DNA of 64,000 bases, from the NCBI GenBank assembly GCA_963741965.1, contig CAVUKC010000001.1, positions 179,008-243,007 on the forward strand, written 5' to 3'. The DNA comes from an uncultured Chloroflexia bacterium. Its GTDB lineage: Bacteria; Chloroflexota; Chloroflexia; Thermomicrobiales; UBA6265. Position numbers and translations under genes: made by a program. The notes beneath the pieces were generated by a model. The model saw only the letters and a list, made by a program, of their open reading frames with translations. It searched no databases and was not told the DNA's origin. Below are positions 3,623-44,233 of the stretch, piece by piece. Numbering within the stretch: the stretch's first letter is position 1; the number at the start of each line of letters is the position of its first letter.

Positions 3623-3706
3623 CGGGTGTCATCCTCCCTCGGTTGGTGCGCGTTCTGCTGCAAGCGTACCGGAAGAGCCGTGCCACGGGTCAGGCCCACC
3701 AGATCC

Positions 3707-3906
3707 CTGTCATCCTGAGCCGGCCAGGAGCCGCAGGCGACGCCGCACGTGTCGAAGGATCCCCCGGCGAAGCCGGTCCGTACCCTCTGGTTCCGAAGGC
3801 TCTCAGTGTCATCTTGTGTGAACCGAACATGTGAACGTCCGCCCTGCGGGCGGGGGATCCCTCGACACGCTCGGCGCTTCGCGCCTCACGGCTCGGGATG
3901 ACAGGG
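3707..3906. repeat. MITE-like foldback repeat family D, copy 1 (about 200 bp)
   Basis: Termini ctgtcatcctgagccgg ... cggctcgggatgacagg are inverted. Internal gtgtcgaaggatccc / ggatccctcgacac arms. Related copies at 35313-35511 and 44000-44233. Confidence 0.8.
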
Positions 3907-3963
3907 GTGGGGGCAACGCTTCCCGCAGCGATCGGAACGCGCATCACGCGTGCAAGGTCGGTA

Positions 3964-25113: not shown

Positions 25114-25795
25114 ATGGCGTCATGGCTCCGAGGACATGCCCGACACCAGCGCTTCCGGGACCGGATCGACGCCGGCGAGCAGCTCGCCGCCAGGCTGGTG
25201 CCGCGCGCGGACGGCACCGCGCTGGTGCTGGGACTGCCGCGCGGCGGCGTGCCGGTGGCGGCGGAGGTCGCGCGGGCCCTCAACGCCGAGCTGGACGTGC
25301 TGGTTGCGCGGAAGGTCGGCGCGCCGCGGACAGCCGGAGCTGGCGGTGGGCGCCGTCACCGCGGATGGTGGTGTCTACCTCGACACGCGGCTCATCGAGC
25401 AGCTCGGCATCTCGCCTGAGGTGCTGGAGGAACGGATTTCCCGGGAGCGGCAGGTCGCCGAGCAGCGCGAGCGGCGATTCCGCGGGGAGCGGCCATATCC
25501 GAAGCTCGAGCGGCGCACCGTGATCCTCGTTGACGACGGGCTCGCGACGGGCGCGACGATGCAGGCCGCCGTGCACGCGGTGCGCAAGCGCCATCCTCAC
25601 CGGCTGGTGGTGGCCGTGCCGGTCGGGTCGCGCTCAGCCGTCGATGCGATCGGGCGTGAGGTGGACGAGGTTATCTGCCTGGAGGTGCGCACTCGATTTC
25701 AGGCAGTTGGGCTGTACTACGAGGACTTCCGCCCCACCCCGGACGCCGAGGTGGAGGCGCTGCTGCGCCAGTTCCGGGGCTATTCGCCAGCCTGA
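25114..25795 (+). pseudogene. Phosphoribosyltransferase-domain protein, +1 frameshift near 25327
   Basis: Frame 1: [12 protein letters not shown]...[14 protein letters not shown]...VARKVGAP. Frame 2 continues [11 protein letters not shown]...VILVDDGLATGATM. The span is 682 nt (1 mod 3). Confidence 0.8.
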
Positions 25796-26295: not shown

Positions 26296-26518
26296 GGCCC
26301 TGCCTTCGTCACGGCAAGAGGTCGATAGGTGAGAGACAGTCGCAAACCGCCTGCCACGATTGATGCTGCCGGCGACCCACCTGGCCGACTGGAGCCGTCG
26401 CACGTGGCGGGCCCGCGCCCTCACCGGCTGAGGGAGACAGCACGTATTGGCGTAGGTCCGGGTTCGATGTGAAGAGCTCGCCCACGGAGAGGTGACCCAG
26501 CTCAAGATAGTGTGCGTG

Positions 26519-27548: not shown

Positions 27549-28406
27549 TCATGCCCGCCTGACGGTGGCATGCCACAGCCCGTGGGCGCGAATCGCCTGG
27601 TCGAGCACATCGCATAGGTCATCGATGACGGGGAGCACCTCGCCGGATTTGAGGTCACCAGCCGCGCGCAGCAACGACCGCACCAGCGGCTCGAACCCTT
27701 CGGGTGCCGCGTCGCCGAGCCGGGCGACATGGCCCAGCAGGCGCTTCTCGCCGGGATGCAGTGACCGGGCGAGTGCGAAGACGATGTCGAACGCGCTTGC
27801 GAGCAGCGACGAGACGCGATGGTTGACGCTGACCGGATCGTCCCGCATCAGTGCGAGCTCGATCTGATGCCGGTAGGAGGAGCGCGCCGTGCGGAGGACA
27901 GGGTGGTTCCACGCGACGATGTTTCGCCGGAGCTGCTCCGGGTACGGGGTGTCGGCGAGGGCGCGCATGGACGCCAGCCAGCCGTCACGGTCGTACGCCG
28001 GATGCGCGTGCCGGAGCGTATGCCAAAAGGCGGTGGAGTAGCCGAGCGACGGGCGATGGCGCTCGATGACGTCGCGAATCGTCGTCTCGAACCATGCACG
28101 GTCGAAGTACGCGATGTCGACCGTGACGCCGCTCGTCGCGTCGGCCCACTCGTCGGCGAGTCCGAACCACGGGTTGCCGATCTCCGGGTTCGGGTCGAAC
28201 CGGGTCGCCAGCGAGCGGCGCAGCTCGCTCGGTACCTCACCGTCGATGAACACCTCGAGGTCGACATCGGAAGCGTGGTCGTCGCTCGCCGACGCCCGCG
28301 ATCCACCGAGCGTGATTGCGACCACGGTGGGATGCCGGGCGAGGGTATCGATGGCGACCCTCACGGCGGCCGGCATGGCAGCGTCATTTTCCATCACCGG
28401 TCCCAT
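27549..28406 (-). CDS. Nucleotidyltransferase-domain protein with a helical C-terminal domain (DUF4037-like)
   Basis: LGGSRASASDDHASDVDLEVF matches the pol-beta NTase GS...DxD motif. Confidence 0.65.
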   Translation of the reverse strand: MGPVMENDAAMPAAVRVAIDTLARHPTVVAITLGGSRASASDDHASDVDLEVFIDGEVPSELRRSLATRFDPNPEIGNPWFGLADEWADATSGVTVDIAYFDRAWFETTIRDVIERHRPSLGYSTAFWHTLRHAHPAYDRDGWLASMRALADTPYPEQLRRNIVAWNHPVLRTARSSYRHQIELALMRDDPVSVNHRVSSLLASAFDIVFALARSLHPGEKRLLGHVARLGDAAPEGFEPLVRSLLRAAGDLKSGEVLPVIDDLCDVLDQAIRAHGLWHATVRRA

Positions 28407-28587
28407 CTCTCGCCTCCCTCGAACCCCAGGTTCAACGTCTTTCCGTGTTGGCTGCCGGCAGGCGGGGGTTCAGCAGTACCGCATCCACTGATACGGCCTC
28501 GCGCCAGGTTGTTGTGCCAGAAGAACACATGTTCTATGATCGGTGGACGGAGACATGGCAGACATCATACGAAGCGGGGAGGATGCT

Positions 28588-29769
28588 ATGCAACGGGTCT
28601 TTCGCGTGGTGGACACGAGGGAATTGTCACCCAAGGGGGTGAAGACGACGGGCCGATTCAATCGAAGTATCGGGCGCTTCGGCGTGCTCAATCCCGTCCT
28701 GCTTGCGGAGGTACCTGATGAGGACGGGGTGATCCAGCTTCATATTCTCGACGGCAACCGTCGAGTTCGGGCGGCTCGGGCCTCGCGGCTTTCGAAGGTA
28801 CCCGCCGTGGTGTTGAAGGAGACTACGCTGCTCGATCGCGCGCGCTTGACCCTGATCTGCAACTTCATGCGGTCGAGCAACTTCCATACAGAGTCTCTGG
28901 CGATCACCATGCTCGGGGGATCTGAGGAGGCGATCGGGCAGGCAGCCGGGGAGATTGGTCTCGGGCCCATGAAGATGCAGCAGCTGTATCGGAAAATCAC
29001 CTCCATGCCCGAAGCGGTGCGACAGGCGATGTACGAGCATCGCATCCCTGTGACCGGGGCCACCTGGGTCGGAGGCTGGCCCGATGATCTGCAGGCAGAG
29101 GTGGTGGAGACGCTCGCACGGCGCAGGCACCTCAACACCCCCGCGCTCAAGGCGATGAAGGCGTCATATGACGCGCGATTTCCCGGTTCGGCCGCACCAG
29201 TGGAGGACGGAGCCGGCAATCAGCGCGTGGATGGATGGCTCGAGGACGACGCTGTCGGTCTCGAGGTCGAGATTCCTCTTCCCGCCCCGACCTTCGTGGA
29301 TCCATCCCGCGCAGCCGTCAGCTCCGTCGAGCCGGAGCCGGGCACGACCGCCCCTGCGACGGTCGTCGCGGGTTCGCTCACATCGGATCCGGGAACGATC
29401 GTCAGACCATTTCCGGCCCCGATGAGCCGGCCCGCTGGGTCTGAGACGGCGGCAGCGACGCCGCCCACGGTTGTGCCGGTAGGGGCCGTGGAGCCGGTGC
29501 CTGTTCCGCCCGAAGAACTGCCCGCGGAAGCGCGGCGGCCGAGTGACGAGCCTCCGCAGCAGCCGGTGGTACGAGAGCATGCGGCGGGGATGATACCTGC
29601 TCGGGCAGCCGGCGATGCCTTCCTGGCTCGGCTCGACGCTGAGCTGCTGCGGCTGGCGCAGGAGACGATCGTTCAGGAGCTTCCGCGTGCGGTCTGGATT
29701 GATCGCGCCATGCGCGCCTGGAATCGCGCGGAGAACACGGGCGACTTCCACCTGTCCGCCACTCGCTGA
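28588..29769 (+). CDS. ParB/Srx N-terminal-domain protein, paralog 1, with a long Pro/Thr/Ala-rich insert
   Basis: MQRVFRVVDT..., SIGRFGVLNPVLL, ILDGNRRVRAA and KVPAVVL match the ParB N-domain pattern. Start at 28588 with ggggagga RBS. Paralog at 39302-40075. Confidence 0.7.
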   Translation: MQRVFRVVDTRELSPKGVKTTGRFNRSIGRFGVLNPVLLAEVPDEDGVIQLHILDGNRRVRAARASRLSKVPAVVLKETTLLDRARLTLICNFMRSSNFHTESLAITMLGGSEEAIGQAAGEIGLGPMKMQQLYRKITSMPEAVRQAMYEHRIPVTGATWVGGWPDDLQAEVVETLARRRHLNTPALKAMKASYDARFPGSAAPVEDGAGNQRVDGWLEDDAVGLEVEIPLPAPTFVDPSRAAVSSVEPEPGTTAPATVVAGSLTSDPGTIVRPFPAPMSRPAGSETAAATPPTVVPVGAVEPVPVPPEELPAEARRPSDEPPQQPVVREHAAGMIPARAAGDAFLARLDAELLRLAQETIVQELPRAVWIDRAMRAWNRAENTGDFHLSATR

Positions 29770-30003
29770 TACCGGGGCGCGCAGGGCGGACGGCCGACGT
29801 GTCAACCCCTTGAGGGGCCAGGAACGGCGTGTCGAATCGGGGCGATCTCGCTTGCGGTGTCGGGATCGTGTGGTAGGTTCGGGGGCGAACCACGACGATT
29901 TCGATCCCTGGCTCGCCTGGCTGGGCAATCCGATTGCCAGTGGGGCCGTGCGCGGCGGGATTCCGCGCGCATGTGCCAGGGACATGTGAGGGAGAACACC
30001 ATC

Positions 30004-30861
30004 GTGGCTACCAGCACCCAGCACGAGTACGACGACACCGGCAAGGTCGTGTTCAATGACTACTACAACCAGCCCGACCCCAGGGCGTACTTCACCGCCC
30101 TGCGGGAGCTGGACTACCGCATTGCCGGTGAGACCCAGCCGGTCATTCGGAATGTGCTGGACGTCCTCCGACCGTGCCGGGACCTCGAGTCCGTCAAGGT
30201 CGTCGACCTCGGCGCCTCCTACGGCGTCAACGCGGCCCTGCTGAAGTGCGATCTCTCGCTGGGCGATCTCTACGACCACTACAGCGATCCAGGCATCGCC
30301 GACGTCTCCCGCGACGAGCTCCTGGAGTGGGACCGTCGCTACTACGCCGAGCACGAGCGCGATGCCGGCCTGGAGACCGTGGGCATCGATCCCGCCAGCA
30401 ACGCGGTCGACTACGGCGTCGAGGTCGAGCTGCTCGATCACGGCATCACGACCAATCTCGAGGAGACGGCGCCAGTGCGTGACGACGTCGCCGCCCTCCG
30501 GGGGGCTGACCTGGTGATGTCGACCGGCTGTATCGGGTACGTGACCGAGACGAGCATCCAGCACCTGCTGGATACCACCGCGGACAACCGGCCCTGGATG
30601 ACGCACTCCGTGCTGCGCATGTTCTCGTTCGCGCCCTACGAGGAGCTGCTGGGCGAGCGCGGGTATGTGACCGAGCGCATGGACGGCACGCTGCTGCAGC
30701 GGCGGTTCGCCAACGAAGAGGAACAGGCTCACGTCATCGAGAACCTGCAGGAAATGGGGATCGACCCTGCCGGCAAGGAGGACGAGGGGTGGTACCACGC
30801 CAACGTGTACATCTCCCGTCCGGTCGAGGATGCAGGTGTGCCGGTGACGCTTACGGCGTGA
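30004..30861 (+). CDS. Putative class I SAM-dependent methyltransferase-like protein
   Basis: VVDLGASYG (motif I-like), VGIDPASNAV, and N-terminal YYNQPDPRAYF reminiscent of NNMT/PNMT-type proteins. GTG start after gagggag; an alternative ATG lies at 29971. Confidence 0.45.
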   Translation: MATSTQHEYDDTGKVVFNDYYNQPDPRAYFTALRELDYRIAGETQPVIRNVLDVLRPCRDLESVKVVDLGASYGVNAALLKCDLSLGDLYDHYSDPGIADVSRDELLEWDRRYYAEHERDAGLETVGIDPASNAVDYGVEVELLDHGITTNLEETAPVRDDVAALRGADLVMSTGCIGYVTETSIQHLLDTTADNRPWMTHSVLRMFSFAPYEELLGERGYVTERMDGTLLQRRFANEEEQAHVIENLQEMGIDPAGKEDEGWYHANVYISRPVEDAGVPVTLTA

Positions 30862-31056
30862 TCCGATACTCGCTGCCCGCGCGGCGGTGAGCGGCGACGG
30901 TCATCATGCAGGAGCCATGACGCGCCCTGCGTGATGACCGTTATGGTAAGATGTCGGCGGAATCCCAATCAATCGGTCTTGCCTCGGTCGACGAGGCGAC
31001 CTGCCATATCCCGCATCGCGGATCGGTCATCCCGTCCCCCTCCAAAGGAGGCGTCC

Positions 31057-31503
31057 ATGCCCACTCCGACCGTGATTTCCGCCTGTCGTGTGATGCCTGC
31101 GCTCACGTCGTTGCGGTCCCTGATTGTCCGATGGATGGCCGTCGCCATCACCGTTGCTTCCATTGCCGGGGCCATCGGGCCACAGGCGGCGCGCGCCGCG
31201 CCGGTGAGCGAGGTCGAATGCGGCATCCTCCTGCCCGGTATCCTGCCCGACGGTCAGGTCATCTCGACCACCGGCAAGCTGGTCATCACGCCGTCCGGCA
31301 CGGCGACGCTGACATGTCGCGGCACGCTTGATCCGTCGCTTGCGCCCGATCGGACCGTGCTCATCACCAACGTGCCATGCGCGCTCGGTGAGGGCGGGAC
31401 GGTCGGCGAGTCGCACACCCAGGTGACACCGAGCGGCGAGGTGCTGCTGGTCTGCCACAACAACCCGGGAACCGAGCCGCTGCCGCCACCGGACGGTGAC
31501 TGA
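31057..31503 (+). CDS. Secreted hypothetical protein (148 aa, 6 Cys)
   Basis: aaggagg RBS. N-terminal signal-like segment ending AARAAP. No recognisable domain. Confidence 0.5.
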   Translation: MPTPTVISACRVMPALTSLRSLIVRWMAVAITVASIAGAIGPQAARAAPVSEVECGILLPGILPDGQVISTTGKLVITPSGTATLTCRGTLDPSLAPDRTVLITNVPCALGEGGTVGESHTQVTPSGEVLLVCHNNPGTEPLPPPDGD

Positions 31504-31544
31504 CGAAATGGCAGCGACGTCAGTCCATCGCTGCCAGGCCCAGC

Positions 31545-31658
31545 CTGTCATTCCGGCTGGAGCACGCGCAGCGTGCGGAATGGAGAAATCGCGAGATTGG
31601 CTGCAACGACGCGATTTCTCCACTTCGCGCCCAGCCGGGCGCTGCGGTCGAAATGACA
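31545..31658. repeat. Foldback repeat family E, copy 1
   Basis: ctgtcattccgg ... gagaaatcgcg ... cgcgatttctccac ... ggtcgaaatgaca. Related copies at 38108-38172 and 39070-39240. Confidence 0.8.
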
Positions 31659-31680
31659 TCTTGCGTTGGCGGGCGCGGGA

Positions 31681-33507
31681 TCAGTCCTGCAGCTCGGTCC
31701 ACCACCACGGCATGCTCCACAGCAGGCTGTACCCACTCGGCAGGAAGTTGTGTAGCGTGCGGCGCGAGCCGACGATCGACTTCCGGAACAGCAGCACGCC
31801 CGCGGCGACCTCGTCGTTGACGATGTTCGACTGCTCGATGAGGAGCTCGATGCGCTTCGCGACGTTGAGCTCCCGCTTCTGCTGCTCGTCAAGCTCGTCG
31901 TAGCGCTCGTTGCAGTAGTGCATCGCGTTGAACCCGGCGAGCGGCACGGCGTCGCAGCGGAACATGTCACCCTGCTCGCCGTCGACGGTCCATGAGAACC
32001 CGTAGATGCGAGCCTCGTAGTCGCCGGTGTCGCTCGCATCGGCGAGCGTCTGCAACGGCACCTCGCGCGGCGTCATTTCCAGCCCGACCTCCCGCCACGC
32101 CTGCTGCATGTACGGGATTTGCTGCTCGTAGCTCGGGACGCCAGACGGGTACATGCACTCGAAGCTGAACCGCGTGCCGTCCCGCTCCCGCACGTCGCCA
32201 TCGCCGGCAAGCCAGCCGGCGTCGTCGAGCAACTGGCGGGCGTGGTCCGGGTCATGGTCATAGATGGTGGTGACGCGGTCCGGGGCGTAGGCGATCGAGA
32301 GCGGCGGCTGGGTGCCGTCCGCCTTCATGGCGTACCCGAGGAAGATCTCCTCGGCCATCAGCTGCCGGTCGAGGGCGTACATCATCGCCTGCCGCACGCG
32401 CACGTCGAGGAAGAGCTCGGTCCGGTCCGGGTCCTGGTTCATGTCGCAGAGGTTGAAGTCGACGGTGTCGAACGCGTGGATCTCGAGGTCCGGGCTCTCC
32501 CCGAGCGATCCGGCCTCGGCGAACGGCACGGTCGCGATGTCGACCTCGCCGGTGCTGAGTGCCGCGGTCGCGGAGGACGCCTCCGGCACGACGCGGTAGA
32601 CGAACTCGTCGATCACCGGCGTTCCAGCCGGGTCCCAGTAGTCGTCGTTCCGCGCGAGCCGGACGTGGTCGCTCTGCAGCCACTCGACGAAGCGGAACGG
32701 ACCCGAGCCGATCACCCGGCTGGCATCGGCGCCGGTCGCGCCGGGATCGGATCCCCACTCGCCCGGCGGGATGTCCCCCCAGATGTGCCTCGGCACGATC
32801 GCGACGAGCACGGCGGTGTTCTCGATGAAGACGGCGAGGCGGTCGCGGGCGATCAGCTCGACGGTGTGGTCGTCGACGGCGCGGTAGCTCGCCAGCGCGA
32901 GATCGACGCTCGAGGCGACGACGCTGAGGCTGCCTGGATCGAGGGTGGCGTCGAAGGAGAAGACGACATCGTCGGCGGTGACCGGTTCGCCGTCGTGCCA
33001 GCGTGCGTTCGGGTTCAGGTGGAAGGTGTAGGTGACGCCATCCTCGGCCAGCTCCCAGTAGTCCGCGAGACCGGGAGCCGGGACGCCGTTCACGGGATTG
33101 GTGCTGGCGAGGTACTCGAAGACGAAGCCGGCGACGTACCCGGTGTAGGCATCGACATAGAGCTGCGGGTTGAGCGTGTCGATGTCGCTCGTCTCGCCGT
33201 AGATCACCTGGCCGCCGGTGACCTCGGGGGTACCGAGATCGTAGGTGTCGCGTATCAGCTGGTTGAGCTCCTCGCGGTTGATCGAGCGCCCGCCCGGCTC
33301 GGCGGCGCCGGTGCGGGATGCCCCGGTGGCCGGTGTCGCGGTCTGGGCGCCGGCTTGCCAGGCAAGGCGCTCGGCGGCCCCGAGCGAGATACCGGCGGCC
33401 GTGGCGAGGCGAATGAGCTCCCGGCGGGATATCGCGCCGCAACGGAGCTGCTCCGCGAGCGCGGTCCATTCAGGTGCAGGCATGGTGACCTCCAGCTGCG
33501 CTGCCAA
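31681..33507 (-). CDS. ABC transporter substrate-binding protein, family 5 (peptide/nickel type), Tat signal
   Basis: SRRELIRLATAAGISLGA twin-arginine leader and a 600-aa SBP_bac_5-like body. No permease or ATPase genes are adjacent. Confidence 0.8.
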   Translation of the reverse strand: MAAQLEVTMPAPEWTALAEQLRCGAISRRELIRLATAAGISLGAAERLAWQAGAQTATPATGASRTGAAEPGGRSINREELNQLIRDTYDLGTPEVTGGQVIYGETSDIDTLNPQLYVDAYTGYVAGFVFEYLASTNPVNGVPAPGLADYWELAEDGVTYTFHLNPNARWHDGEPVTADDVVFSFDATLDPGSLSVVASSVDLALASYRAVDDHTVELIARDRLAVFIENTAVLVAIVPRHIWGDIPPGEWGSDPGATGADASRVIGSGPFRFVEWLQSDHVRLARNDDYWDPAGTPVIDEFVYRVVPEASSATAALSTGEVDIATVPFAEAGSLGESPDLEIHAFDTVDFNLCDMNQDPDRTELFLDVRVRQAMMYALDRQLMAEEIFLGYAMKADGTQPPLSIAYAPDRVTTIYDHDPDHARQLLDDAGWLAGDGDVRERDGTRFSFECMYPSGVPSYEQQIPYMQQAWREVGLEMTPREVPLQTLADASDTGDYEARIYGFSWTVDGEQGDMFRCDAVPLAGFNAMHYCNERYDELDEQQKRELNVAKRIELLIEQSNIVNDEVAAGVLLFRKSIVGSRRTLHNFLPSGYSLLWSMPWWWTELQD

Positions 33508-33649
33508 GGGATGGATGCACGGTCCCGGGTGCGACTGATGTCGCTGTCATGCAGATGGTCGACATGGGTCCCAGAGGTCAGCATACACCCGAGGTCGTGC
33601 GTGCCCGCAATGCGCGCACCGAGGAGATCACGTGGAGGCGTGCCGACAC

Positions 33650-35204
33650 CTATGCGGTGCGGAGATCCCCGACGGCCTTGGCGCGGATGCGGGTGGCGTT
33701 GCCGGGCAGGTAGGCGAGGGGGATATCCTCGACGTCGACGATCTCGACCGTCTCCGGGTCGGCGCCGGCGGTGATAGCCCGCTCGGTCGCCTCGGCCTTC
33801 GCCTGCGCCACCGCCTCGTCGCGCGTCATCTCCGCCATCGAGAAGACGCGGTCGACCTCGCCGCTGATCTGCGCGATCGCCGCGCCGACGGCGTTGGCAG
33901 CCGCGTAGTGGTCCGGCTTGACCAGCTCACCGACGCCATCCACTTCGGTCACGAGGATCGAGCCACCGCCGACGACGATCAGGTCGACATCGCCGGCCTG
34001 CGTCTTCATGCGGTCGACCCCGGCCGAGATCATCTCCCGGATGCGCGTCGCGGCGGCGTCGACGGTCTCCGGGTCGAAGCGCGACACGCGGCACTGCTCG
34101 CCGATGTCGGCCCAGCCGGCGGCTCACGGCAATGTCCGTCGCGGTGAGCGTGTCCCCGCCGAACACCCATGCCTCCCGCGTGATCCGGTGCCCGACGCTT
34201 TGCGGCCCGACGAGCACGGCGTCGTCATCGTCGACCGTCACGATCGAGCCGCCGCCGAGGCCGAAGGAGTAGACATCCGGCATGCGGAAGTTGGTGCGCA
34301 CGCCGCCGATGTCCACCGCCAGCGAGGAGCGGCGGGGGAAGCCGTCGACGAGCACGCCGAGGTCGCTGGTGGTGCCGCCGACGTCGAGCACGAGCGCGTT
34401 CTGACGACCGGAGAGGAAGGCGGCGCCGCGCACGGAGTTGGACGGACCAGAGGCGAAGGTGAGCACCGGGAAGTGCTCGGCGAAGTCCGCGGTCATGAGC
34501 GTGCCGTCGTTCTGCGTCAGGTAGAGCGGGGCCTCGATACCCATGCCGGCGATCGCGTCCCTGAACGCGGCGACGGTCTTTCGGGCGAGCGGGCGCAGCG
34601 CGGCGTTGAGGATGGCGGCGTTCTCCCGCTCCAGCAGGCCGAGCTGACCGACCTCGTGCGAGCGGGTGATCGACGCGCCAGGCAGCAGGTCGGCAAGAAT
34701 GTTCGCGGCGCGGTCCTCCATCGCCGGATTCACCGGCGCGAAGGCCGCAGAGATGGCGACGTCGGCGATGCCCGCCGCCCGGATCGCCTCGGCGACGTTC
34801 TTCAATTCCTCCGGAACGAGGGGATGGATCTCGCGGCCGTCGAACTCGTTGCCGCCGTGGACCATGAACGTGTGGTTGCCGACGGCGTCGCGGATGTCGG
34901 CGGGCCAATCCATCATCGGCGGGATCGACTCCGACGCGGGCAGCGCGAGACGGACGATCGCCGTCTGTGCGAGGTGGCGGCGCTCGATCACGGCGTTGGT
35001 GAAGTGCGTGGTGCCGATCATCACGCCGGCGATGTCGGCAGGCGTGACGCCGCCGGTCTCGAGGATGGTCGAGACGGCGGTGACGATGCCAGTGGTGACA
35101 TCGTCGGTCGTCGGGGTCTTGCAGGTGGCGTGCACGGTGCGCCCGTGCATGAGGGCGGCGTCCGTGTTGGTCCCGCCGACGTCGATTCCGATCCGCATCG
35201 TCAC
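33650..35204 (-). pseudogene. Hydantoinase/oxoprolinase (HyuA-type) family protein, +1 frameshift near 34121-34124
   Basis: MRIGIDVGGTNTD and LDVGGTTSD ATPase motifs run up to TATDIAV. The next frame continues AGWADIGEQCRVSRFDPETV...VVGGGS. The span is 1555 nt (1 mod 3). Confidence 0.8.
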
Positions 35205-35312
35205 GCTGGTCGCTCCAGGGGTGGTGGCCGTCGTTCACTGGTGATGATTATGGGGCGGAGAGCGGGGAGGTCAACCGAGCAGAGAGTGGTTGCACGACTC
35301 TATCATCCCCAA

Positions 35313-35511
35313 CCTGTCATCCCGAGCCGGTGAGGGCCGCAGGCCCGAGACGTGTCGAGGGATCTCCCGCTCCGCAGGAGCGGTCCCGTCTTCTCCGGCG
35401 CTCAATCAAGCGGAGGTCACCTCTATCGGCGCCAGAGCAAGGACCGGCTTCGCCGGGAGATCCCTCGACACGCCATCGGCGCTTCAGCGCCTCGTCGGCT
35501 CGGGATGACAG
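35313..35511. repeat. MITE-like foldback repeat family D, copy 2
   Basis: cctgtcatcccgagccgg ... cggctcgggatgacag, with internal gtgtcgagggatctcc / ggagatccctcgacac. Confidence 0.8.
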
Positions 35512-35526
35512 CAGTTCGGCCGGCCT

Positions 35527-36342
35527 TCAGCACGGATCAAGGTCGGCATTCAGGAGCGGAACCATCGTCTCGATGAAGCGAACGGTCTCCGCGAAGGTGT
35601 CGACCGGGCCGTTGGCGTCTGGTGAGACGCGCCGCTCGAGCGCCATCTCGATCAGCGACGTCCACTCCGGGTAGCGAGACTGTACCCAGCGCGCGGCCCT
35701 GACCTTCGAAACGAGATCCCCGGTGTAGTGGGTGTAGAGCGCGCGGCAGAGGGTGAGGATCGCGTACGACTCCCCGCGCTGGTCGCCGACGGTGTGGATG
35801 CGAGTGAGCCAGTCCCGCCCGAGCTCCCGCGCGGCGTCGATGAAGACTACCTTCGGGATCGGCGCGATCAGCGTTTCCGGCGGCGGACCGAAGAGCGTGA
35901 CGCCGTGGTCGAGCACGAAGAACCAGTTGATGCGCCAGTCGTCGCCGGCGTCGATGAGGTGGATCGGCTCGCCGGGGCTGATGATGCCCATCGGGCTGCG
36001 CTCGGTGCGCCACGTCCGCAGGCCGTGCGTCGACTGATAGGCGACCTCGATGCGGTCGACCCATTCCGGGTGACGCGCGACGATCTGCCGGTGCATCTCG
36101 CGCAGCCGGTCGATGTCGTCCTCAGTCATGAACCGGCTGGTGACGGCGACGAGGTCGATGTCGCTCACACCGGGCGTGAAGTCTCCGTAGACCAGCGAGC
36201 CGAAGAGGTAGAGCCCGGCGAAGTCGGCGCCGAGCGTGGCGGCGATGCCCTCGCGCAGCTCGCCGAGCAGGGCAGCGACGTCTGAAGGTGGCTCGAAGAC
36301 ACGCGCGTCGATCGACACCGGCCGGTCATCCTGCTCTTGCAT
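35527..36342 (-). CDS. Aminoglycoside/streptomycin adenylyltransferase-like nucleotidyltransferase (ANT(3'')/DUF4111 type)
   Basis: LYLFGSLVYGDFTPGVSDIDLVAV NTase motif plus a C-terminal helical domain. Resistance function is not shown. Confidence 0.65.
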   Translation of the reverse strand: MQEQDDRPVSIDARVFEPPSDVAALLGELREGIAATLGADFAGLYLFGSLVYGDFTPGVSDIDLVAVTSRFMTEDDIDRLREMHRQIVARHPEWVDRIEVAYQSTHGLRTWRTERSPMGIISPGEPIHLIDAGDDWRINWFFVLDHGVTLFGPPPETLIAPIPKVVFIDAARELGRDWLTRIHTVGDQRGESYAILTLCRALYTHYTGDLVSKVRAARWVQSRYPEWTSLIEMALERRVSPDANGPVDTFAETVRFIETMVPLLNADLDPC

Positions 36343-36610
36343 GCATGTTTGCTGATGCCTGAAGATACCGAAGCTGATCCTGCTTATCGAAGAGTGCATG
36401 CAGGCGGGAGCGTGATTCGGACTCGGACAGATCGCCGCGGGTGAATTCGGCCATCACCAGTTCTGCGGTGTCGAAGATGTCCTGCTCCTCGTCCGCAAGC
36501 ACGCGTTCGAGCTGATCGGCATGCTCGGACAGGAAGTTCCAAAGCTGACTGGCGGTGATGATGCCTGCGTCGAAGCGATTCAGATGTGAGAAGAGGTCTC
36601 GGGCATCCAT
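36326..36610 (-). CDS. Hypothetical protein (94 aa), low GC
   Basis: GGAG RBS 7 nt upstream of the ATG. The 3' end overlaps the ANT-like gene start by 17 nt. No recognisable domain. Confidence 0.4.
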   Translation of the reverse strand: MDARDLFSHLNRFDAGIITASQLWNFLSEHADQLERVLADEEQDIFDTAELVMAEFTRGDLSESESRSRLHALFDKQDQLRYLQASANMHARAG

Positions 36611-36623
36611 TGCACATCTCCGT

Positions 36624-36923
36624 ATGGAACGCGTGACTACCGAGGAGATTCGCGATCTCTTCGAGCGACGAGACTATCTCCGGCGCTGGCGGAACGGCGA
36701 GTTCCTCTCCTGTCTCAAGAAGGAGGTCGCCGCCGGGCCGCACCAGCCCCCGGGAACACGAAGTCTCATGGTGGGATTCGTCAACCGGGACGGCGTCCGC
36801 GAGTGCCTCGTGCATTTCTATTATCTCCCTGACGGCAATATCGGCGCGAGCGGCAGGCCGGATCCGAAGGAGATCGTCGACAATCAGGCAATCTATCGCC
36901 TGTTCTTGAAGCACCATGATTGA
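36624..36923 (+). CDS. Hypothetical protein (99 aa) with PPGTRS...H.YYLPDG..GASGRPDPK motif
   Basis: ATG lies 13 nt from the divergent 94-aa gene start. No obvious RBS. The motif looks conserved, but I cannot name the family. Confidence 0.4.
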   Translation: MERVTTEEIRDLFERRDYLRRWRNGEFLSCLKKEVAAGPHQPPGTRSLMVGFVNRDGVRECLVHFYYLPDGNIGASGRPDPKEIVDNQAIYRLFLKHHD

Positions 36924-36941
36924 TCGTGACGCGCCGACCAG

Positions 36942-38093
36942 TTGCATGCCGCATTGTGCAAGGATGAACGCTACGTGTCCTGGATTGTAACGCCTGACCA
37001 CCTTGACGCTCTTGAGATCGGTGCCGGCATCCTCGGCACCGGCGGGGGCGGGAACCCGTATCTCGGCAAGCTCATCGCCCGCAAGTTCGTCGAGGAGGGC
37101 GCTCGGATCGAGATCGTCGACCCCGCCGAGGTACCGGATGACGCCGTGGTGGCATCTGTCGGCGGCATGGGCTCGCCGACGGTCAGCATCGAGCGGCTGC
37201 GGCGGGCGGACGAGTCGGTGAAGGCGCTGCGGGCGCTTGAGGCCCACACCGGCAGGAGGGTGACGCACCTGGTGCCGAGCGAGATCGGTGGCAGCAACTC
37301 GACCACGCCGATGGTCGTCGCCGCGCAGGTCGGGCTGCCGGTGATCGACGGCGACGGCATGGGGCGAGCGTTCCCCGAGCTGCAGATGGAGACCTTCGCG
37401 ATGTACGGCGTCACGCCGACGCCGGCCGCGCTCTGCAACCACCACGGGCACATCGCCATCTTCGACCGCATCGACGACGCGACCACGCTGGAGCGGTACG
37501 CCCGCGCGGTGACGATCCAGATGGGCGGCTCGGCGGGCTACGCCTTCCCGGTGATGACCGGCACGCAGCTGAGGGAGACGGTGATCCCTGGCACGCTCTC
37601 GCTGGCGATCCGGCTCGGCGAGGCGGTGATGGCAGCGCGGCGAGAGAAGTCGGACCCAATCGCGGCGGTCTGTGCGGTCACCGGCTGGCAGCGGCTGTTC
37701 GCGGGCAAGGTGCTGGACGTCGAGCGGCGCATGACCGGCGGCTTCGCGCGCGGCGTCGTGGTGCTGGATGGGTTCGGCGACTTCGCCGGGCGGACGCTGC
37801 GGGTCGACTTCCAGAACGAGAACCTGATCGCGCGGGAGGATGGTGGCGCGGTGCTGGCGGTGGTGCCGGACCTGATCTGCCTGATCGACAGCGATACCGG
37901 CGCGCCGCTGACGACGGAGGTGTTGCGCTACGGGCTGCGGGCGACGGCGATCGGCATCCCTGCGCCGGAGCAGCTGCGAACCGAGGTCGGGCTGCGCTTC
38001 GTCGGGCCGGCGGCGTTCGGGTACGACGATGTGGAGTACCGCCCTCTGCCGGGCACCTACGCGAGCCGCACAGGGACGGCTAGTTTGCCGTAG
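36942..38093 (+). CDS. DUF917-family protein (hydantoinase-associated)
   Basis: IGAGILGTGGGGNPYLG, SEIGGSNS and IDGDGMGRAFPELQM motifs typical of DUF917. The start may be the GTG at 36975. Confidence 0.75.
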   Translation: MHAALCKDERYVSWIVTPDHLDALEIGAGILGTGGGGNPYLGKLIARKFVEEGARIEIVDPAEVPDDAVVASVGGMGSPTVSIERLRRADESVKALRALEAHTGRRVTHLVPSEIGGSNSTTPMVVAAQVGLPVIDGDGMGRAFPELQMETFAMYGVTPTPAALCNHHGHIAIFDRIDDATTLERYARAVTIQMGGSAGYAFPVMTGTQLRETVIPGTLSLAIRLGEAVMAARREKSDPIAAVCAVTGWQRLFAGKVLDVERRMTGGFARGVVVLDGFGDFAGRTLRVDFQNENLIAREDGGAVLAVVPDLICLIDSDTGAPLTTEVLRYGLRATAIGIPAPEQLRTEVGLRFVGPAAFGYDDVEYRPLPGTYASRTGTASLP

Positions 38094-38107
38094 GCGCCGC
38101 GGACCCG

Positions 38108-38172
38108 ACATGTCATAGCGAACGGTGAGGTTTCTCCGCTGCGCCCCCACGGGCGCTCCGGTCGAAATGACA
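38108..38172. repeat. Foldback repeat family E, partial copy 2
   Basis: catgtcatagcga...tttctccgc...ggtcgaaatgacacc. Confidence 0.6.
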
Positions 38173-38200
38173 CCTGCTCATCTGAGGTCGGACGTGAAAC

Positions 38201-39040
38201 ATGAATGACGACATCGAGGTTCGACGGCTCTCCGCGAGCGAGGTGCATCTCGCGATCGACTGGGCTCGGGAAGAGGGGTGGAACCCGGGGCTGTTCGATG
38301 CGGCCTGCTTCCACGCCGCCGACCCGGACGGGTTCTTCGTTGCGCTTCACGACGGGGAGCCAGCCGCCGTGGTCAGCGTGGTGCGGTATGGCTCGAGCTA
38401 CGCCTTCCTGGGTCTTTACATCTGCCGGCCCGACCTGCGGGGCAGGGGGTACGGCATACGCGTTTGGAACGCGGGGATCGCGTACGCCGGCGGGCGCACG
38501 ATCGGGCTGGACGGCGTGCCGGCGCAGCAGCACAACTACGCAAAGTCCGGCTTCACGCTCGCCTGGAACAACGTGCGCTACCAGGGCCAGGGTGGTGGCC
38601 AGCCGGTCGCGGGGCTCGTGGACCTCGACAGTGTCCCGTTCGAGCAGATCGCTGCCTATGACGGTGCGGTGTTCGAGGCGGACCGGCGGCGCTTCCTTCG
38701 CACCTGGGTCGCCCAGCCGGATGCGGTTCGTCTCGGTGTGGTGCGCGATGGCAGGCTGGCGGGGTGGGGGTTGATGCGTCGCTGTGCCGAGGGACACAAG
38801 ATCGGGCCGTTGTTCGCGGACGACCAGGCGACGGCCGAGCGGCTGCTGGATGGACTCATGGCGTCGGTGCCGGGCGACGTCGTGTATCTGGATGTTCCCG
38901 AGCCGAACGGGCTCGCTGTTGCTGCGGCGAAGGCGAGGGGCATGACGCCCGTGTTCGAGACGGCGCGGATGTATGCCGGCGAACGCCCCGAAATCGATAT
39001 CGCAAGGATTTGGGGGATCACCAGCTTTGAGCTCGGGTAG
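38201..39040 (+). CDS. GNAT-family N-acetyltransferase (two-domain, YitH-like)
   Basis: YICRPDLRGRGYGIRVW is an acetyl-CoA binding motif (R/Q-x-x-G-x-G/A). 279 aa. Confidence 0.75.
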   Translation: MNDDIEVRRLSASEVHLAIDWAREEGWNPGLFDAACFHAADPDGFFVALHDGEPAAVVSVVRYGSSYAFLGLYICRPDLRGRGYGIRVWNAGIAYAGGRTIGLDGVPAQQHNYAKSGFTLAWNNVRYQGQGGGQPVAGLVDLDSVPFEQIAAYDGAVFEADRRRFLRTWVAQPDAVRLGVVRDGRLAGWGLMRRCAEGHKIGPLFADDQATAERLLDGLMASVPGDVVYLDVPEPNGLAVAAAKARGMTPVFETARMYAGERPEIDIARIWGITSFELG

Positions 39041-39069
39041 GTTGTGCCACTCGTTCCTGCGTCCGGTTT

Positions 39070-39240
39070 GACGTCTCATCCCCGCAGGGGAACGGAGTGG
39101 AGAGATCGCGAACCTGACGGCAACGACGCGATTTCTCCACGCCCGCCCGCGGCGCCTGGTCGAAACGACAAGGTTGGGTTGCGCACGGCGACGCGAGCCT
39201 GCCGCTTCTGGGCTATCGCCGCTCCGGTCGAGATGACATC
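39070..39240. repeat. Foldback repeat family E, copy 3 plus an adjacent half copy
   Basis: gtctcatccccgcagg...gagagatcgcg...cgcgatttctccac...ggtcgaaacgaca, then ...ggtcgagatgaca. Confidence 0.7.
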
Positions 39241-39301
39241 CTCGGTTGAGCGTCGCGTGCGACCATAGGTGTTGATCGAACCCTCGAACAGGGAGCATCC
39301 C

Positions 39302-40075
39302 ATGCAACGTGTCTTTCGCATCGTCGACACCGCCGATCTCACGCCGATGGACCTGAAGCCGTCCGCCCGGATGGTGCAGAGCGTGCGTGACTACGGCATT
39401 CTCACGCCGATCCTGCTGCAGGAGCGCGTCGATGAGGACGGCGTGATCGCCCTGGAGATCGTCGACGGCAACCGGCGCGTGAACGCCGCGCTGGAGGCCG
39501 GGCTGCCAAAGGTGCCGGCGGTCGTCTACCAGGGTGTCGAGGGCGACCTCGCCCCCGCGATCACGGTCATCTCCAACACGCTGCGCTCCCGCAACGCCGT
39601 CACCGAATGGCGCGCGGTCGAGCAGCTTGGCGACTTCGGACACGACGCCGATGGGATCATGCGCCTCACCGGGTTGACGAAGGCGAGCCTCGAAACGCGT
39701 CTGCGGCCATCGGCGATGCACCCGGACCTGCGCCGGGCAATGCTCGAGGGGCGGCTCAATGTCACCGTATGGGAGCGGGCAGGCAAGCTGCCGCCGGAGT
39801 CGCAGCAGCGCCTCGCGGACGAGCTGGAGCGCACTGGCGGTCTGAAGCTCGCCGACGTCGACGCCGAGCGCAAGCGCGTCGAAGCGACGCAGGAGGTGCG
39901 CGACGACGTCGATGTGCCGGCATCGCAAGGAGCGCCGGGCACGCGGGAGCAGCTCGAGGAGCGGCTGGTGGAGCTGGCGTCGTTCGCTCGGTCCGTCGGC
40001 ATGAGCGAGTACGAGTGGAGCCGGCTGGCGACGAACGCCTGGCGGCGAAGCGAGCAGGACGCTGACGACGAATAG
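39302..40075 (+). CDS. ParB/Srx N-terminal-domain protein, paralog 2
   Basis: MQRVFRIVDT..., VRDYGILTPILL, IVDGNRRVNAA and KVPAVVY. The shared C-terminal W(N/R)R(A/S)E tail matches paralog 1. RBS gggag. Confidence 0.7.
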   Translation: MQRVFRIVDTADLTPMDLKPSARMVQSVRDYGILTPILLQERVDEDGVIALEIVDGNRRVNAALEAGLPKVPAVVYQGVEGDLAPAITVISNTLRSRNAVTEWRAVEQLGDFGHDADGIMRLTGLTKASLETRLRPSAMHPDLRRAMLEGRLNVTVWERAGKLPPESQQRLADELERTGGLKLADVDAERKRVEATQEVRDDVDVPASQGAPGTREQLEERLVELASFARSVGMSEYEWSRLATNAWRRSEQDADDE

Positions 40076-40692
40076 GCATTGTCGCTGGAAGGGGCGGCTG
40101 CGAATGGACGGCCATGCCGGTTGGCGGATCGCACGCCGGTGCGCGCGGTGCTGCTGGCAAATCGTGGTTCGGGGGCGTGCCAACCCCAGCCACGACGGCC
40201 GTTGCGAGCGTCGTCACCACGCGTCAGGCGCGGGAACATTGGCGCGACGATGTCCCGTACCAACTGGATACCCTTTGCTGCGGGGATCAGCAAGAGCAGC
40301 CCGGCTAGCCCAATATCCAGATACGAGATCGAGCCGTCTGGCGACAACCCGATCAGCAGTAGCACCAAGGGACCAAGAACCGTGCCAAGAACGGGGTGAT
40401 TGACCAGGAAATTGCCCCACCCCTCCCACGTCATTGATTCGGAGGAGGTGTCTCGAAGCCAGTTCCAGCCATCGTTGGCAGCACCCCACACGGCGCCAGG
40501 CGCTTGTTGGGCGGTATCCCAGACAGCGCCAGGCGCTTGCTGGGCGGTATCCCAGACAGCATCTGCCGCATTTACTGTCGTGTCCTTGGTGCCTCCGATG
40601 ACATCAACGCCGGTATCGACTACGGTATCGAACCAGCCCCCGGAATCATCTTCTTGGGGATCGTCCTCTTCCGATTCGTTGCCTGACTGCAC
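39526..40692 (-). CDS. Hypothetical membrane protein with an acidic N-terminus and AVWDTAQQAPG tandem repeat; the 3' limit is doubtful
   Basis: Two clear TM helices (VLGTVLGPLVLLLIGL, LDIGLAGLLLLIPAA) lie in 40250-40400. The GTG start has no RBS. The last 180 codons or so are low-complexity S/A/R antisense to ParB paralog 2, so the real stop is probably missing or hidden by an indel. Confidence 0.35.
   Translation of the reverse strand: MQSGNESEEDDPQEDDSGGWFDTVVDTGVDVIGGTKDTTVNAADAVWDTAQQAPGAVWDTAQQAPGAVWGAANDGWNWLRDTSSESMTWEGWGNFLVNHPVLGTVLGPLVLLLIGLSPDGSISYLDIGLAGLLLLIPAAKGIQLVRDIVAPMFPRLTRGDDARNGRRGWGWHAPEPRFASSTARTGVRSANRHGRPFAAAPSSDNAYSSSASCSLRRQAFVASRLHSYSLMPTDRANDASSTSRSSSCSRVPGAPCDAGTSTSSRTSCVASTRLRSASTSASFRPPVRSSSSARRCCDSGGSLPARSHTVTLSRPSSIARRRSGCIADGRRRVSRLAFVNPVRRMIPSASCPKSPSCSTARHSVTALRERSVLEMTVIAGARSPSTPW
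40495..40560. repeat. Tandem 33-bp repeat x2 (plus a partial third unit), coding
   Basis: Encodes AVWDTAQQAPG twice, then AVWG. Confidence 0.8.
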
Positions 40693-42592: not shown

Positions 42593-42865
42593 ATGACGAC
42601 GACATCGACATCTGGACCGAACCCGCCGTGCGAAGTCGGACGCCGCCACCCGCGTGACCGGCACCGGATGCGACCCGTGGAGGGACACGAGCATCTCTGG
42701 TACTGCAGCAAGCACGGCATGTACGGCGTGCTGGTCGACAAGGACGATGCCGACAGGGCGGAGCGCGGTGCCGAGCAGGAGCTCCCCAACGGAGTCACCG
42801 GTGTGGTGATGGGCAAGGGCGACGAGCGCCAGGGCGGTGTCCTGCTCTACCTGCGGGAGCTCTGA
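42593..42865 (+). CDS. Small hypothetical protein (90 aa), possible Cys/His metal site
   Basis: Its stop TGA overlaps the ATG of the downstream LLM gene. Contains CEVGRRH ... WYCSKH. Confidence 0.35.
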   Translation: MTTTSTSGPNPPCEVGRRHPRDRHRMRPVEGHEHLWYCSKHGMYGVLVDKDDADRAERGAEQELPNGVTGVVMGKGDERQGGVLLYLREL

Positions 42866-43971
42866 TGCCGGTCGAGCGGCTGCGGTTCGCGGTGGACAGC
42901 ACCCACCAGCGGATCGCCAATGCGCAGAAGACCGGTGCTGACGTTCAGGCCGCCATCGACGACCTCGTCCGCTTCGCGAAGGCCGCGGATCAGGGCGGGG
43001 TCGACTCGTTCTGGCTGAACGAGGACCCGGAGGGGTGGGACGCCGCCGCCGTGCTGAGCGTGGTTGCTCGCGAGACGGAGCGGATCCGTCTCGGGCCCGG
43101 TGTGATGAACCCCTACTACCGGCATCCGGCGCTGATCGCGGCGTCACTGTCGACGTTGGACGTGCTCAGCGACGGCCGCGCCTTCCTCGGGTTCGGCCGC
43201 GGTCAGGCCGAGTGGTACCGCGAGGCGCTCGGCATCGACGTCGGCTCCCCGCTGCGGGCGCTGGAGGAGTCCTTCCAGCTCCTGCGGCAGTGGTTCTCGC
43301 GGCCGTGGCACGCGGACGCCGCTGAGGGCGCCACCGAGTTCAAGGTGACGCACTGGGAGCGGGTGATCGGGCCGGTGCAGGAGCACCTCCCCGTCTACCT
43401 CGCGGCGGTTGGTCCCAAGGCGCTCTCCATCGCCGCGCGGCACGCCGACGGCGTCATCTTCAACGAGCTCTCCTCCGTGACCTTCATCGAGCGGACGATC
43501 CGGGATGTGCGCGACGAGGCCGCGCGGCACGGTCGCGACGCCGACGCGATGCGGTTCTTCGCCCGCGCTGCCGTCACCGTCACCGACGACCCGGAGCCGG
43601 TCTGGGAGCGGCGAAAGGACACCGTCTCGCTGATCCACGCGCTGCCGGGCATGGAGCGGCTGCTGGAATCGCCGAACTTCGATACTGACGAGATCATCGC
43701 GCGGGTGCGTGAGGAGATGAAGACGCTGGAGGTGCTGGAGCGCGGCGGCAACTTCCCCGAGCTGAAGCGGGAGGGGGATTTCCGCGCGGCACGGAAGCAC
43801 ATCCCGACCGAGCTGATGCAGGAGCTGGTTGTTGCGGGACCGGTCGAGGACGTGCGGGGCCGCCTGCGACGTCTCCGCGAGATCGGCGTCACCGATGTGT
43901 TCCTGTCGCGCCCGAAGGATGCATCGTCCGAGCACATCGGCGAGATCGTCTCCGCCCTCGCGGATGCGTGA
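42865..43971 (+). CDS. LLM-class (luciferase-like) flavin/F420-dependent oxidoreductase
   Basis: VDSFWLNEDP, IRLGPGVMNPYYRHPA and LDVLSDGRAFLGFGRG are typical of the LLM family. Confidence 0.8.
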   Translation: MPVERLRFAVDSTHQRIANAQKTGADVQAAIDDLVRFAKAADQGGVDSFWLNEDPEGWDAAAVLSVVARETERIRLGPGVMNPYYRHPALIAASLSTLDVLSDGRAFLGFGRGQAEWYREALGIDVGSPLRALEESFQLLRQWFSRPWHADAAEGATEFKVTHWERVIGPVQEHLPVYLAAVGPKALSIAARHADGVIFNELSSVTFIERTIRDVRDEAARHGRDADAMRFFARAAVTVTDDPEPVWERRKDTVSLIHALPGMERLLESPNFDTDEIIARVREEMKTLEVLERGGNFPELKREGDFRAARKHIPTELMQELVVAGPVEDVRGRLRRLREIGVTDVFLSRPKDASSEHIGEIVSALADA

Positions 43972-43999: not shown

Positions 44000-44233
44000 T
44001 TCATCCTGAGCCGGCAAGGTGCCGCAGGCATCGCCTCCGTGTCGAAGCGCCTGTCGTGAGCGAGCGCCAAAGGCGCGAGTCGAATGGAGTCCCCCGGCGG
44101 AGCCGCTGCCCGTAGGGCAGAACTGAACGATGCGCCAGGTTTCGTTGATGCGGCAGCGTGCGCTGCCGGCGCTTCGCGCGGGGATCCTTCGACACGTCTC
44201 GGGACTCCGTCCCTTGCCGGCTCAGGATGACAT
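44000..44233. repeat. MITE-like foldback repeat family D, copy 3
   Basis: ttcatcctgagccgg ... ccggctcaggatgacat, with internal ggatccttcgacac. Confidence 0.75.

Follow-up and report, generated by a model that had tools for sequence, protein, structure and literature searches.

Two genes for ParB-like proteins lie in the same orientation in a stretch of 64,000 nucleotides from an uncultured Chloroflexia bacterium of the Thermomicrobiales (contig CAVUKC010000001.1; hereafter, the window). Are these genes the borders of an integrated element, degraded or uncharacterised, or do they have a chromosomal role other than partition? A sequence-only reading of the locus had left both explanations standing. 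Overall, we consider it somewhat probable that the two genes are an orphan ParB-like long/short pair with a non-partition role, and that the long copy is under an SOS-type operator. For comparison, the DNA around homologs was fetched and the window genes were mapped onto the relatives' loci, which are labelled L0xx.

Two ParB-like paralogs and their predicted CTP pocket

Both open reading frames (ORFs; Table 1) encode proteins that begin with MQRVFR, and because this start is conserved we preferred the ATG codons at 28588 and 39302 over GTG codons further upstream. The long and short proteins were 38% identical over 200 amino acids (BLASTP, E = 2e-30), and both exceeded the gathering score of the Pfam ParB_N model (PF02195; 26.3 bits). 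The motifs SI/V..G.L.P.LL, DGNRRV.AA and KVPAVV were present in both and were conserved family-wide in our alignment, and the C-terminal tails, AW(N/R)R(A/S)E, were similar. The two genes are true paralogs, as the sequence-only reading had proposed from their starts, shared N-domain motifs and tails. Orthologs of the long protein (40–61% identity) were found in L002, L010, L015, L017 and L019, and orthologs of the short protein (50–76% identity) lay immediately 3' of a DUF917 or GNAT gene. An exact look-up of the window's long protein gave no matching record.

Models of partition proteins and of Noc were matched below their cutoffs: the partition model TIGR00180 at 37 bits (cutoff 58.45), the PRTRC ParB model at 30 and 42 bits (cutoff 278.6), PRK13832 at 31 bits (cutoff 640) and the Noc equivalog TIGR04285 at 24 and 30.5 bits (cutoff 315). 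The ParA-activating peptide LG(R/K)GL was missing from the family, whereas the canonical ParBs aligned with it have GLGKGLGAL. No ParA-type deviant Walker A motif (KGGxGK[ST]) was found in any frame of the 64-kb window, and no canonical parS was found there at up to one mismatch, in agreement with the earlier remark that neither ParA nor a parS-like array is nearby. Matches to parS with two or three mismatches, such as TGTTCCACATGAACCA at 57409–57424 (two mismatches), were near chance, as 3 of 100 shuffles gave as many.

The long protein consists of a ParB N-domain and a helix-turn-helix (HTH) domain (residues 1–200), a P/A-rich linker (~201–337) and a C-terminal helical hairpin (338–383). In its AlphaFold2 (AF2) model, the predicted local distance difference test (pLDDT) score was at least 93 for residues 1–200 and 90–96 for residues 341–380. 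In the linker, the means of 10-residue blocks were 38–70, with values below 50 across most of 246–334. Because pLDDT was low throughout ~201–337, we read this linker, about 140 residues, as disordered. The short protein is likewise built of N-domain, HTH and C-terminal hairpin, but its linker is short; its AF2 model had a mean pLDDT of 86.6. The top Foldseek matches of the short model were Spo0J (1vz0), Noc (7nfu), ParB with CTPγS (7bnr), ParB with CDP (6sdk) and KorB (8qa9), at E values of 3e-9 to 1e-7. The sequence alignment to Spo0J 1vz0 (phmmer) spanned residues 23–193, that is, N-domain and HTH, and the AF2 helices of residues 99–196 superposed on ParB/Noc DNA-binding domains. The proteins of the family start, with MQRVFR, straight at β-strand 1. 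At the other end, there was no ParB_dimer match to the canonical C-terminal dimer domain; a different, family-specific helical hairpin stands there instead.

In Caulobacter ParB, residues S74, G79, R103, R104, N136 and R139 are required for the binding of cytidine triphosphate (CTP), as is R60, and Q58, E102 and E135 are required for CTP hydrolysis; the E102A protein is a locked clamp, able to load but not to open again afterwards (Jalal et al. 2021, PMC8367383). S74, G79, R103, R104, N136 and R139 correspond here to S27, G32, R58, R59, N92 and R95, all of which were conserved or invariant: in the family alignment, G56, R58, R59, N92 and R95 were invariant, and S27 and G32 were conserved. The three hydrolysis residues, on the other hand, were replaced in every family member. 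The QPR motif with the Q58 equivalent is gone together with an 8-residue deletion, and loops containing K or R stand in its place; GERR (E102) has become GNRR, and ENLxR (E135) has become S/T/A/C-N-x-x-R.

A palindrome in the promoter of the long gene

The promoter of the window's long gene was read from the sequence and from alignment to orthologous promoters, since its −35 element is too weak for a simple scanner. Its spacer contains a perfect 14-bp palindrome, AGAAC-N4-GTTCT (Table 1), which is the sole match to this pattern at up to one mismatch in the window. This palindrome was absent from the sequence-only reading, which had suggested a search for inverted repeats shared by the two genes as parS candidates. 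This conserved promoter palindrome, present at the long gene only, aside, no shared palindrome emerged across loci: the 12–20 bp palindromes shared among nine loci were GC-rich coding coincidences.

Across five loci, the upstream regions of the long gene had 58% column identity, the exception being AGAAC-N4-GTTCT followed by a TATGAT-like hexamer. A perfect GAAC-N4-GTTC occurred about 55–115 bp 5' of the start in 9 of 11 promoters of long-type or mosaic genes (window, L002, L010, L017, L019, L023, L027, L032 and L033), two of which, L032 and L033, had been predicted to carry it before those loci were fetched. Of the remaining two, L018 had one mismatch, and in L015 the right arm had decayed. 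By contrast, none of 16 short-type promoters had a perfect box, and the best match upstream of the window's short gene had two mismatches. The difference between long-type and short-type promoters was significant by Fisher's exact test (p ~1e-5), with the loci being related to one another. In L019 and L023, the scanner itself called promoters with the box in the spacer (TTGACC-17-TATATT and TTGACG-17-TATAGT).

Just one further promoter had the box: in L015, a near-consensus promoter (TTGACA-16-TATACT) carries a perfect AGAACGTTTGTTCT in its spacer. The operon beneath it (L015 2397–4345) encodes TcmP (TIGR04474) and a Gp37/Gp68-type DUF5131 protein, lies 3 kb from the long ParB-like gene and may belong with the long genes to one regulon. 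XRE-type HTH and ImmA/IrrE-like regulators are linked elsewhere to DNA-damage responses; L018 encodes such a fusion of an XRE-type HTH with Peptidase_M78 (2707–3918, minus strand), with a one-mismatch box, GAACGTTCGTTT, at the 5' end. Another sequence considered as a box, GGTTCTATACT, is shared by the promoters of a small protein and luciferase-like monooxygenase (LLM) gene described below; it was rejected as being their −10 region.

The Chloroflexi member Dehalococcoides reportedly has the LexA box GAAC-N4-GTTC. This is the LexA box of Bacillus subtilis, Mycobacterium tuberculosis and Gram-positives generally (PMC3323433, PMC4234289). From this identity of motif, we consider the long-gene palindrome to be a reasonably good candidate, somewhat better than an even bet, for a LexA (SOS) operator. 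If it is one, the long protein would be made after DNA damage. In the literature searched, no ParB-family gene was reported as a member of a LexA regulon.

Under the reading we favour, LexA would repress the long gene (ancestrally, the whole pair), and the long protein would accumulate upon DNA damage. Both proteins would bind CTP, and their N-domains would close into a clamp on DNA. These clamps would stay locked on the DNA because the proteins would be unable to hydrolyse CTP. The long and short proteins would cooperate through their N-domains and their C-terminal hairpins, which are homologous and might join them into a heteromer, and their role would be chromosome handling rather than plasmid or island partition. 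More tentatively, and with considerable doubt, we suggest that a damage-induced, CTP-binding, hydrolysis-dead and naturally clamp-locked long/short complex might belong to the core SOS functions of Thermomicrobiales-type Chloroflexota. Once LexA is cleaved, such a complex would load and stay, to hold, compact or occlude damaged DNA; division or segregation, for example, might be delayed until repair is done.

Several observations weigh against this scheme. The equivalent of R60 falls in the region of the 8-residue deletion, with K or R in only part of the family, which makes CTP binding uncertain. No repeated binding site for the ParB-like proteins emerged from the parS and palindrome searches described above. 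The assignment to LexA has motif identity as its single line of evidence. Moreover, the box is tied very tightly to this one gene family, which would fit a self-operator or loading site too, and the sole other promoter that has it, that of the TcmP/DUF5131 operon, is the one near the L015 long gene whose own box has decayed.

The strongest alternative is accordingly that the palindrome is the ParB-like proteins' own operator or a parS-like loading site, and that autoregulation acts on the long gene, and ancestrally on the long-short operon, much as KorB, P1 ParB or Spo0J have sites close to their own genes. A 14-bp palindrome suits an HTH dimer, and across ~300 kb of related loci the box was found almost only at this family's promoters. 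The perfect box in L015 is 5' of the decayed-box long gene and within reach of a sliding clamp, and in L002 a second GAAC-N4-GTTC lies within the coding sequence of the long gene. However, the recognition-helix region diverges widely among box-bearing genes (MKMQQLYRKI, AQSVRTRLR, TSTNFRVCDR, TTTAIKSRVR), while the GAAC and GTTC arms are kept without exception and there is free variation at the central 4 bp. Such a pattern is typical of LexA boxes and not of parS or the Noc-binding site, and because the helices diverge while the arms stay constant, a separate trans-acting factor is favoured. The motif is, besides, identical to the known Gram-positive/Chloroflexi LexA box, and the L015 box is in the near-consensus promoter of an unrelated operon. 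We therefore regard autoregulation as possible, though clearly the less likely explanation of the palindrome.

An ancestral long-short operon and the genes now between the copies

In a profile search over 1.84 billion representative proteins, about nine 50%-identity clusters scored above 320 bits and formed a tight family. An outer shell, which shares the start and the C-terminal helices of this family, scored 140–200 bits, and canonical ParBs scored ~120 bits. Homologs of both proteins were confined to metagenomic sequences and metagenome-assembled genomes (MAGs). In the few NCBI/GTDB labels on which the taxonomic range rests (Thermomicrobiales, Chloroflexota, Chloroflexia), the pair is an old, lineage-specific set of orphan ParB/Noc/KorB-type proteins, so far seen only in Thermomicrobiales-like Chloroflexota. 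A neighbour-joining tree placed the whole family apart from canonical ParBs. Within the window's lineage, long and short proteins formed separate clades, and long/short pairs occurred in other lineages too, a pattern that repeated duplication or gene conversion could explain.

In L027 and L032, both of the outer shell, the long (374 or 325 amino acids) and short (250 amino acids) frames have an 8-bp overlap of identical geometry, and the two genes therefore form a translationally coupled bicistronic operon. Elsewhere the copies are 2.2 kb (L018), 4.3 kb (L002) and, in the window, 9.5 kb apart. The ParB-like gene or genes are followed by a small-protein gene and then by the LLM gene in L018, L024, L026–L029, L032 and L033; in the window, the small-protein and LLM genes lie 2.5 kb 3' of the short copy. 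Ancestrally, these two genes stood next to the ParB-like pair on its downstream side. The ancestral long-short operon has been split in the window's lineage by native chromosomal genes, and it is because of this split that two ParB-like genes appear to bracket a segment.

The small protein (~89 amino acids) has invariant W, C and H residues and a GDERQGG motif in the alignment of the window with L018, L024, L026–L029, L032 and L033. Its conserved N-terminal extension, SGPNPPCEVGRRHPRDRHR, was overlooked by gene callers. The gene is always immediately 5' of, and overlapping, the LLM gene, and 3' of the ParB-like gene(s).

One gene, at 10001–10921 of L023 (= P0065), is a mosaic: its N-domain and HTH are of the short type, its C-terminal hairpin is of the long type, and it has the box-bearing promoter of the long gene. 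It is the sole ParB-like copy in that locus, from which hydA and DUF917 are absent. The paralogs therefore exchange sequence. Simple deletion between direct repeats was rejected as the origin of the mosaic, as it would yield a long-type N-terminus and a short-type C-terminus, the opposite of what was found.

The conserved neighbourhood raises the possibility that the pair are local regulators, in the manner of KorB or VirB, of the hydantoinase/DUF917 genes, of the small protein and LLM genes, or of both. The order of ParB-like gene(s), small protein and LLM persists even where the ParB-like proteins are 33–39% identical, and in relatives the short copy directly follows DUF917, overlapping it in L013. 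Yet the promoters of these genes had no palindrome or motif in common besides −10-like elements, hydA and DUF917 are not beside the pair in L027, L032 and L033, and in the window hydA is frameshifted while both ParB-like genes are intact. A local regulatory role is thus improbable, and more so than the autoregulation considered above.

Table 1. Features of the two ParB-like genes, the interval between them and its flanks (window coordinates)
Feature	Position	Strand	Basis and remarks
NTase1, nucleotidyltransferase	27549-28406		Pfam
Putative sigma-70-type promoter of the long gene	28512..28540	+	TTGTGC 28512-28517; 17-nt spacer with palindrome; TATGAT 28535-28540
Perfect 14-bp palindrome AGAACACATGTTCT, putative operator	28522..28535	+	GAAC-N4-GTTC, Cheo/LexA type; 66 bp upstream of the long ATG
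Long ParB-like paralog	28588..29769	+	393 aa; Pfam ParB_N, 28.4 bits
p285, conserved protein	30004..30861	+	285 aa; no Pfam or NCBIfam match
Small secreted-protein ORF	31054-31503		Only interval gene without an ortholog in any fetched locus
Family-5 solute-binding protein	31681..33507	-	Pfam SBP_bac_5, E = 4e-79
hydA, hydantoinase/oxoprolinase A type	33650..35204	-	Pfam Hydant_A_N + Hydantoinase_A; frameshift near 34122
NTase2, nucleotidyltransferase	35527..36399	-	Pfam AadA_C + NTP_transf_2
p94, small low-GC ORF	36326-36610	-	94 aa; GC 0.57
p122, small low-GC ORF	36627-36923	+	About 98-122 aa; GC 0.60
DUF917 / S-methyl-thiohydantoin-desulfurase family	36975..38093	+	NCBIfam matches below cutoff; Pfam S-Me-THD_N/C on orthologs
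GNAT acetyltransferase	38201..39040	+	Orthologs 71-75% identical
Short ParB-like paralog	39302..40075	+	257 aa; Pfam ParB_N, 34.9 bits
Small conserved protein	42593-42865	+	~89 aa; no Pfam family; start extended upstream
LLM, luciferase-like monooxygenase	42865-43971	+	Pfam Bac_luciferase

The genes between the copies, and those outside both paralogs, were syntenic in relatives at 55–89% identity, with the small secreted-protein ORF excepted. In one MAG, represented by L010 and L001, the order is phosphoribosyltransferase, BKACE, long ParB, p285, hydA, NTase2, p94, p122, DUF917 and short ParB, followed by a thioredoxin-like protein, p184, the small protein and LLM. This is the window order minus NTase1, the small secreted protein, the solute-binding protein and GNAT, and three of these four genes were syntenic in other relatives (L006, L015, L017 and L002). 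GC content at third codon positions (GC3) in the interval was 0.82–0.93, as in the flanks, and was lower only in p94 and p122. No integrase or transposase domain was found in any interval gene scanned, and the window contained no tRNA gene and no Rfam family. Because the genes inside and outside are syntenic, GC3 is native, and integrase, transposase and tRNA are missing, the interval is not an accessory island.

That the paralogs bound an integrated element, whether degraded or uncharacterised (28.4–40.1 kb), is accordingly very unlikely. The content between the copies does differ by lineage, from none where the frames overlap to the 9.5 kb of the window, the interval contains two low-GC ORFs, a frameshifted gene and repeats of MITE-like (miniature inverted-repeat transposable element) and foldback type, and ParB-like genes are common on mobile elements, as PHROG matches illustrate. 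On the other side stand the near-complete synteny and the operon of the two genes in distant relatives. Likewise, among PADLOC defence models the long paralog had no match and the short one only a marginal match to MTase_II (E = 0.0013), and a PLSDB protein search gave no plasmid homolog. The content listed in the sequence-only reading (nucleotidyltransferases, foldback-flanked GNAT, low-GC ORFs, split hydantoinase/DUF917, MITE-like repeats) was as described; the element built from it gives way to conserved syntenic positions of both genes and the interval. The other role proposed there, chromosomal and not in partition, agrees with the conserved chromosomal locus and with the lack of a ParA motif, a ParA-activating peptide and the canonical dimer domain.

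Large second replicons are found in Thermomicrobiales-type genomes, and the source contig is 955,726 bp long. Sphaerobacteraceae have multiple chromosomes (PMC3323433). That the pair are centromere-binding proteins of such a secondary replicon with a distant ParA fits their ParB fold and motifs but is hardly credible, as the ParA-activating peptide and the hydrolysis residues needed for recycling are gone, no ParA motif or parS cluster was found in the 64 kb, and the scores are far below the NCBIfam partition cutoffs.

The individual genes of the interval have varied relations to the pair. The p285 protein is 66% identical to its ortholog in L010, where the gene stands just after long ParB, and it is present in L019 and L023 too. 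The solute-binding protein gene is an ordinary chromosomal transport gene, and a 58% identical ortholog lies beside hydA in L006. The window's hydA was matched by two tblastn segments in different frames, 84–87% identical to intact orthologs, and its frameshift is either that of a pseudogene or a sequencing error; three genes part it from its usual DUF917 partner. The phosphoribosyltransferase gene at 25114–25777 also matched in two frames (around 25330). Orthologs of NTase2 (65–71% identity) were found in L001, L015, L019 and L023, and in the last three of these a long-type or mosaic ParB-like gene follows them immediately. In PADLOC, the nucleotidyltransferases had weak candidate matches to PDC-S09 only. 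The divergent p94 and p122 had no family matches in domain and family library scans; their L001 orthologs (74% and 85% identity) occupy the same position between NTase2 and DUF917. Orthologs of DUF917 were 84–89% identical, and the position of GNAT relative to the short paralog varied among relatives.

Downstream of the short gene, a probable membrane-protein gene (40080–40692, minus strand; GC3 0.66) contains a 33-bp tandem repeat (40477–40542), and no homolog was detected in the relatives. It occupies the place of genes for proteins of 187–189 and 212 amino acids in relatives. L002 and L006 encode the 187–189-residue protein 3' of the short copy. The window lacks an ortholog of it, the only likeness being a weak one to the N-terminal region of the thioredoxin-like protein.

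Two repeat families occur in the window. The MITE-like family, of ~200–240 bp, has copies at 3708–3903, 35315–35510 and 44001–44232 and a partial copy at 26417–26440; its terminal inverted repeats read TGTCATCC(C/T)GAGCCGG, and as RNA it would fold back very stably (−132 kcal/mol). As copies at 3.7 kb and 44 kb lie outside the interval, the family is not interval-specific. The second family (31568–31661, 38141–38175 and 39081–39238) consists of a hairpin with a 12-bp stem (GGAGAAATCGCG...CGCGATTTCTCC) and a tail, CGGTCGAAATGACA. The last two copies flank GNAT as foldbacks, and they may have mediated its relocation. The 261-bp gap 5' of the short gene is filled by the foldback repeat and showed no promoter- or terminator-like signal. 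The short gene, which lacks the box, is predicted to be read on from DUF917/GNAT, having escaped the operator.

Significance and likeness to known ParB-family and LexA systems

The CTP switches of the ParB family (ParB, Noc, KorB, PadC) are a young field, in which each new orphan branch has so far brought a new use of the clamp. Several features make the present pair unusual: binding residues are kept while all three hydrolysis residues are lost, the C-terminal domain is its own, the long/short pair is conserved and in some lineages translationally coupled, and even very divergent members share a putative operator that has the sequence of the Gram-positive LexA box. Orphan ParB-like proteins are common; it is the hydrolysis-dead signature together with the coupled pair and the SOS-type operator that makes for a specific hypothesis. 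If the SOS link is true, the pair would be a concrete candidate for post-damage chromosome handling in a poorly studied phylum. If the clamps are locked as well, it would represent a new class of SOS effector and would put the ParB CTP switch to a new use. For annotation, such genes should not be named 'chromosome partitioning protein ParB', and paired ParB-like genes alone are no evidence of an island.

By the partition-ParB and Noc membership tests, which it fails, the pair is an uncharacterised branch of ParB/Noc/KorB/PadC-type CTP switches. It shares with ParB/Spo0J the fold of N-domain and HTH (Foldseek E ~3e-9; 1vz0, 6sdk, 7bnr), the arginine pair of GxRR and the N and R of ENLxR. It differs from them in having neither ParA partner nor LG(R/K)GL, in that no parS was found, in its long/short pairing, in the loss of all three hydrolysis residues and in its C-terminal hairpin. 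Noc resembles the pair in being a chromosomal, orphan paralog of ParB whose role is not partition, and in its two-domain core (7nfu, E = 3e-9). Noc, however, keeps its CTPase residues, and because the present proteins start directly at β-strand 1, with no N-terminal extension, they have no Noc-type membrane-targeting helix.

KorB of RK2 offers the likeness of a ParB-family protein that serves gene regulation, and it gave the best TM-score among the matches (0.40–0.50; 8qa9, E ~1e-7). Unlike the pair, it is plasmid-borne, has KorA and IncC (ParA) as partners and acts on multiple OB sites. The Myxococcus protein PadC, whose ParB/Srx N-domain binds CTP without noticeable hydrolysis (PMC8367383), provides a precedent for a CTP-binding, non-hydrolysing ParB-like protein, with a weak structural match (6ryk, E = 2e-4). 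PadC has no HTH and partners with bactofilins and ParA, whereas the pair keeps the full DNA-binding core. As for the promoter, the palindrome resembles a LexA/Cheo box in having arms identical to the consensus, a variable centre and a position inside the promoter spacer beside the −10 element.

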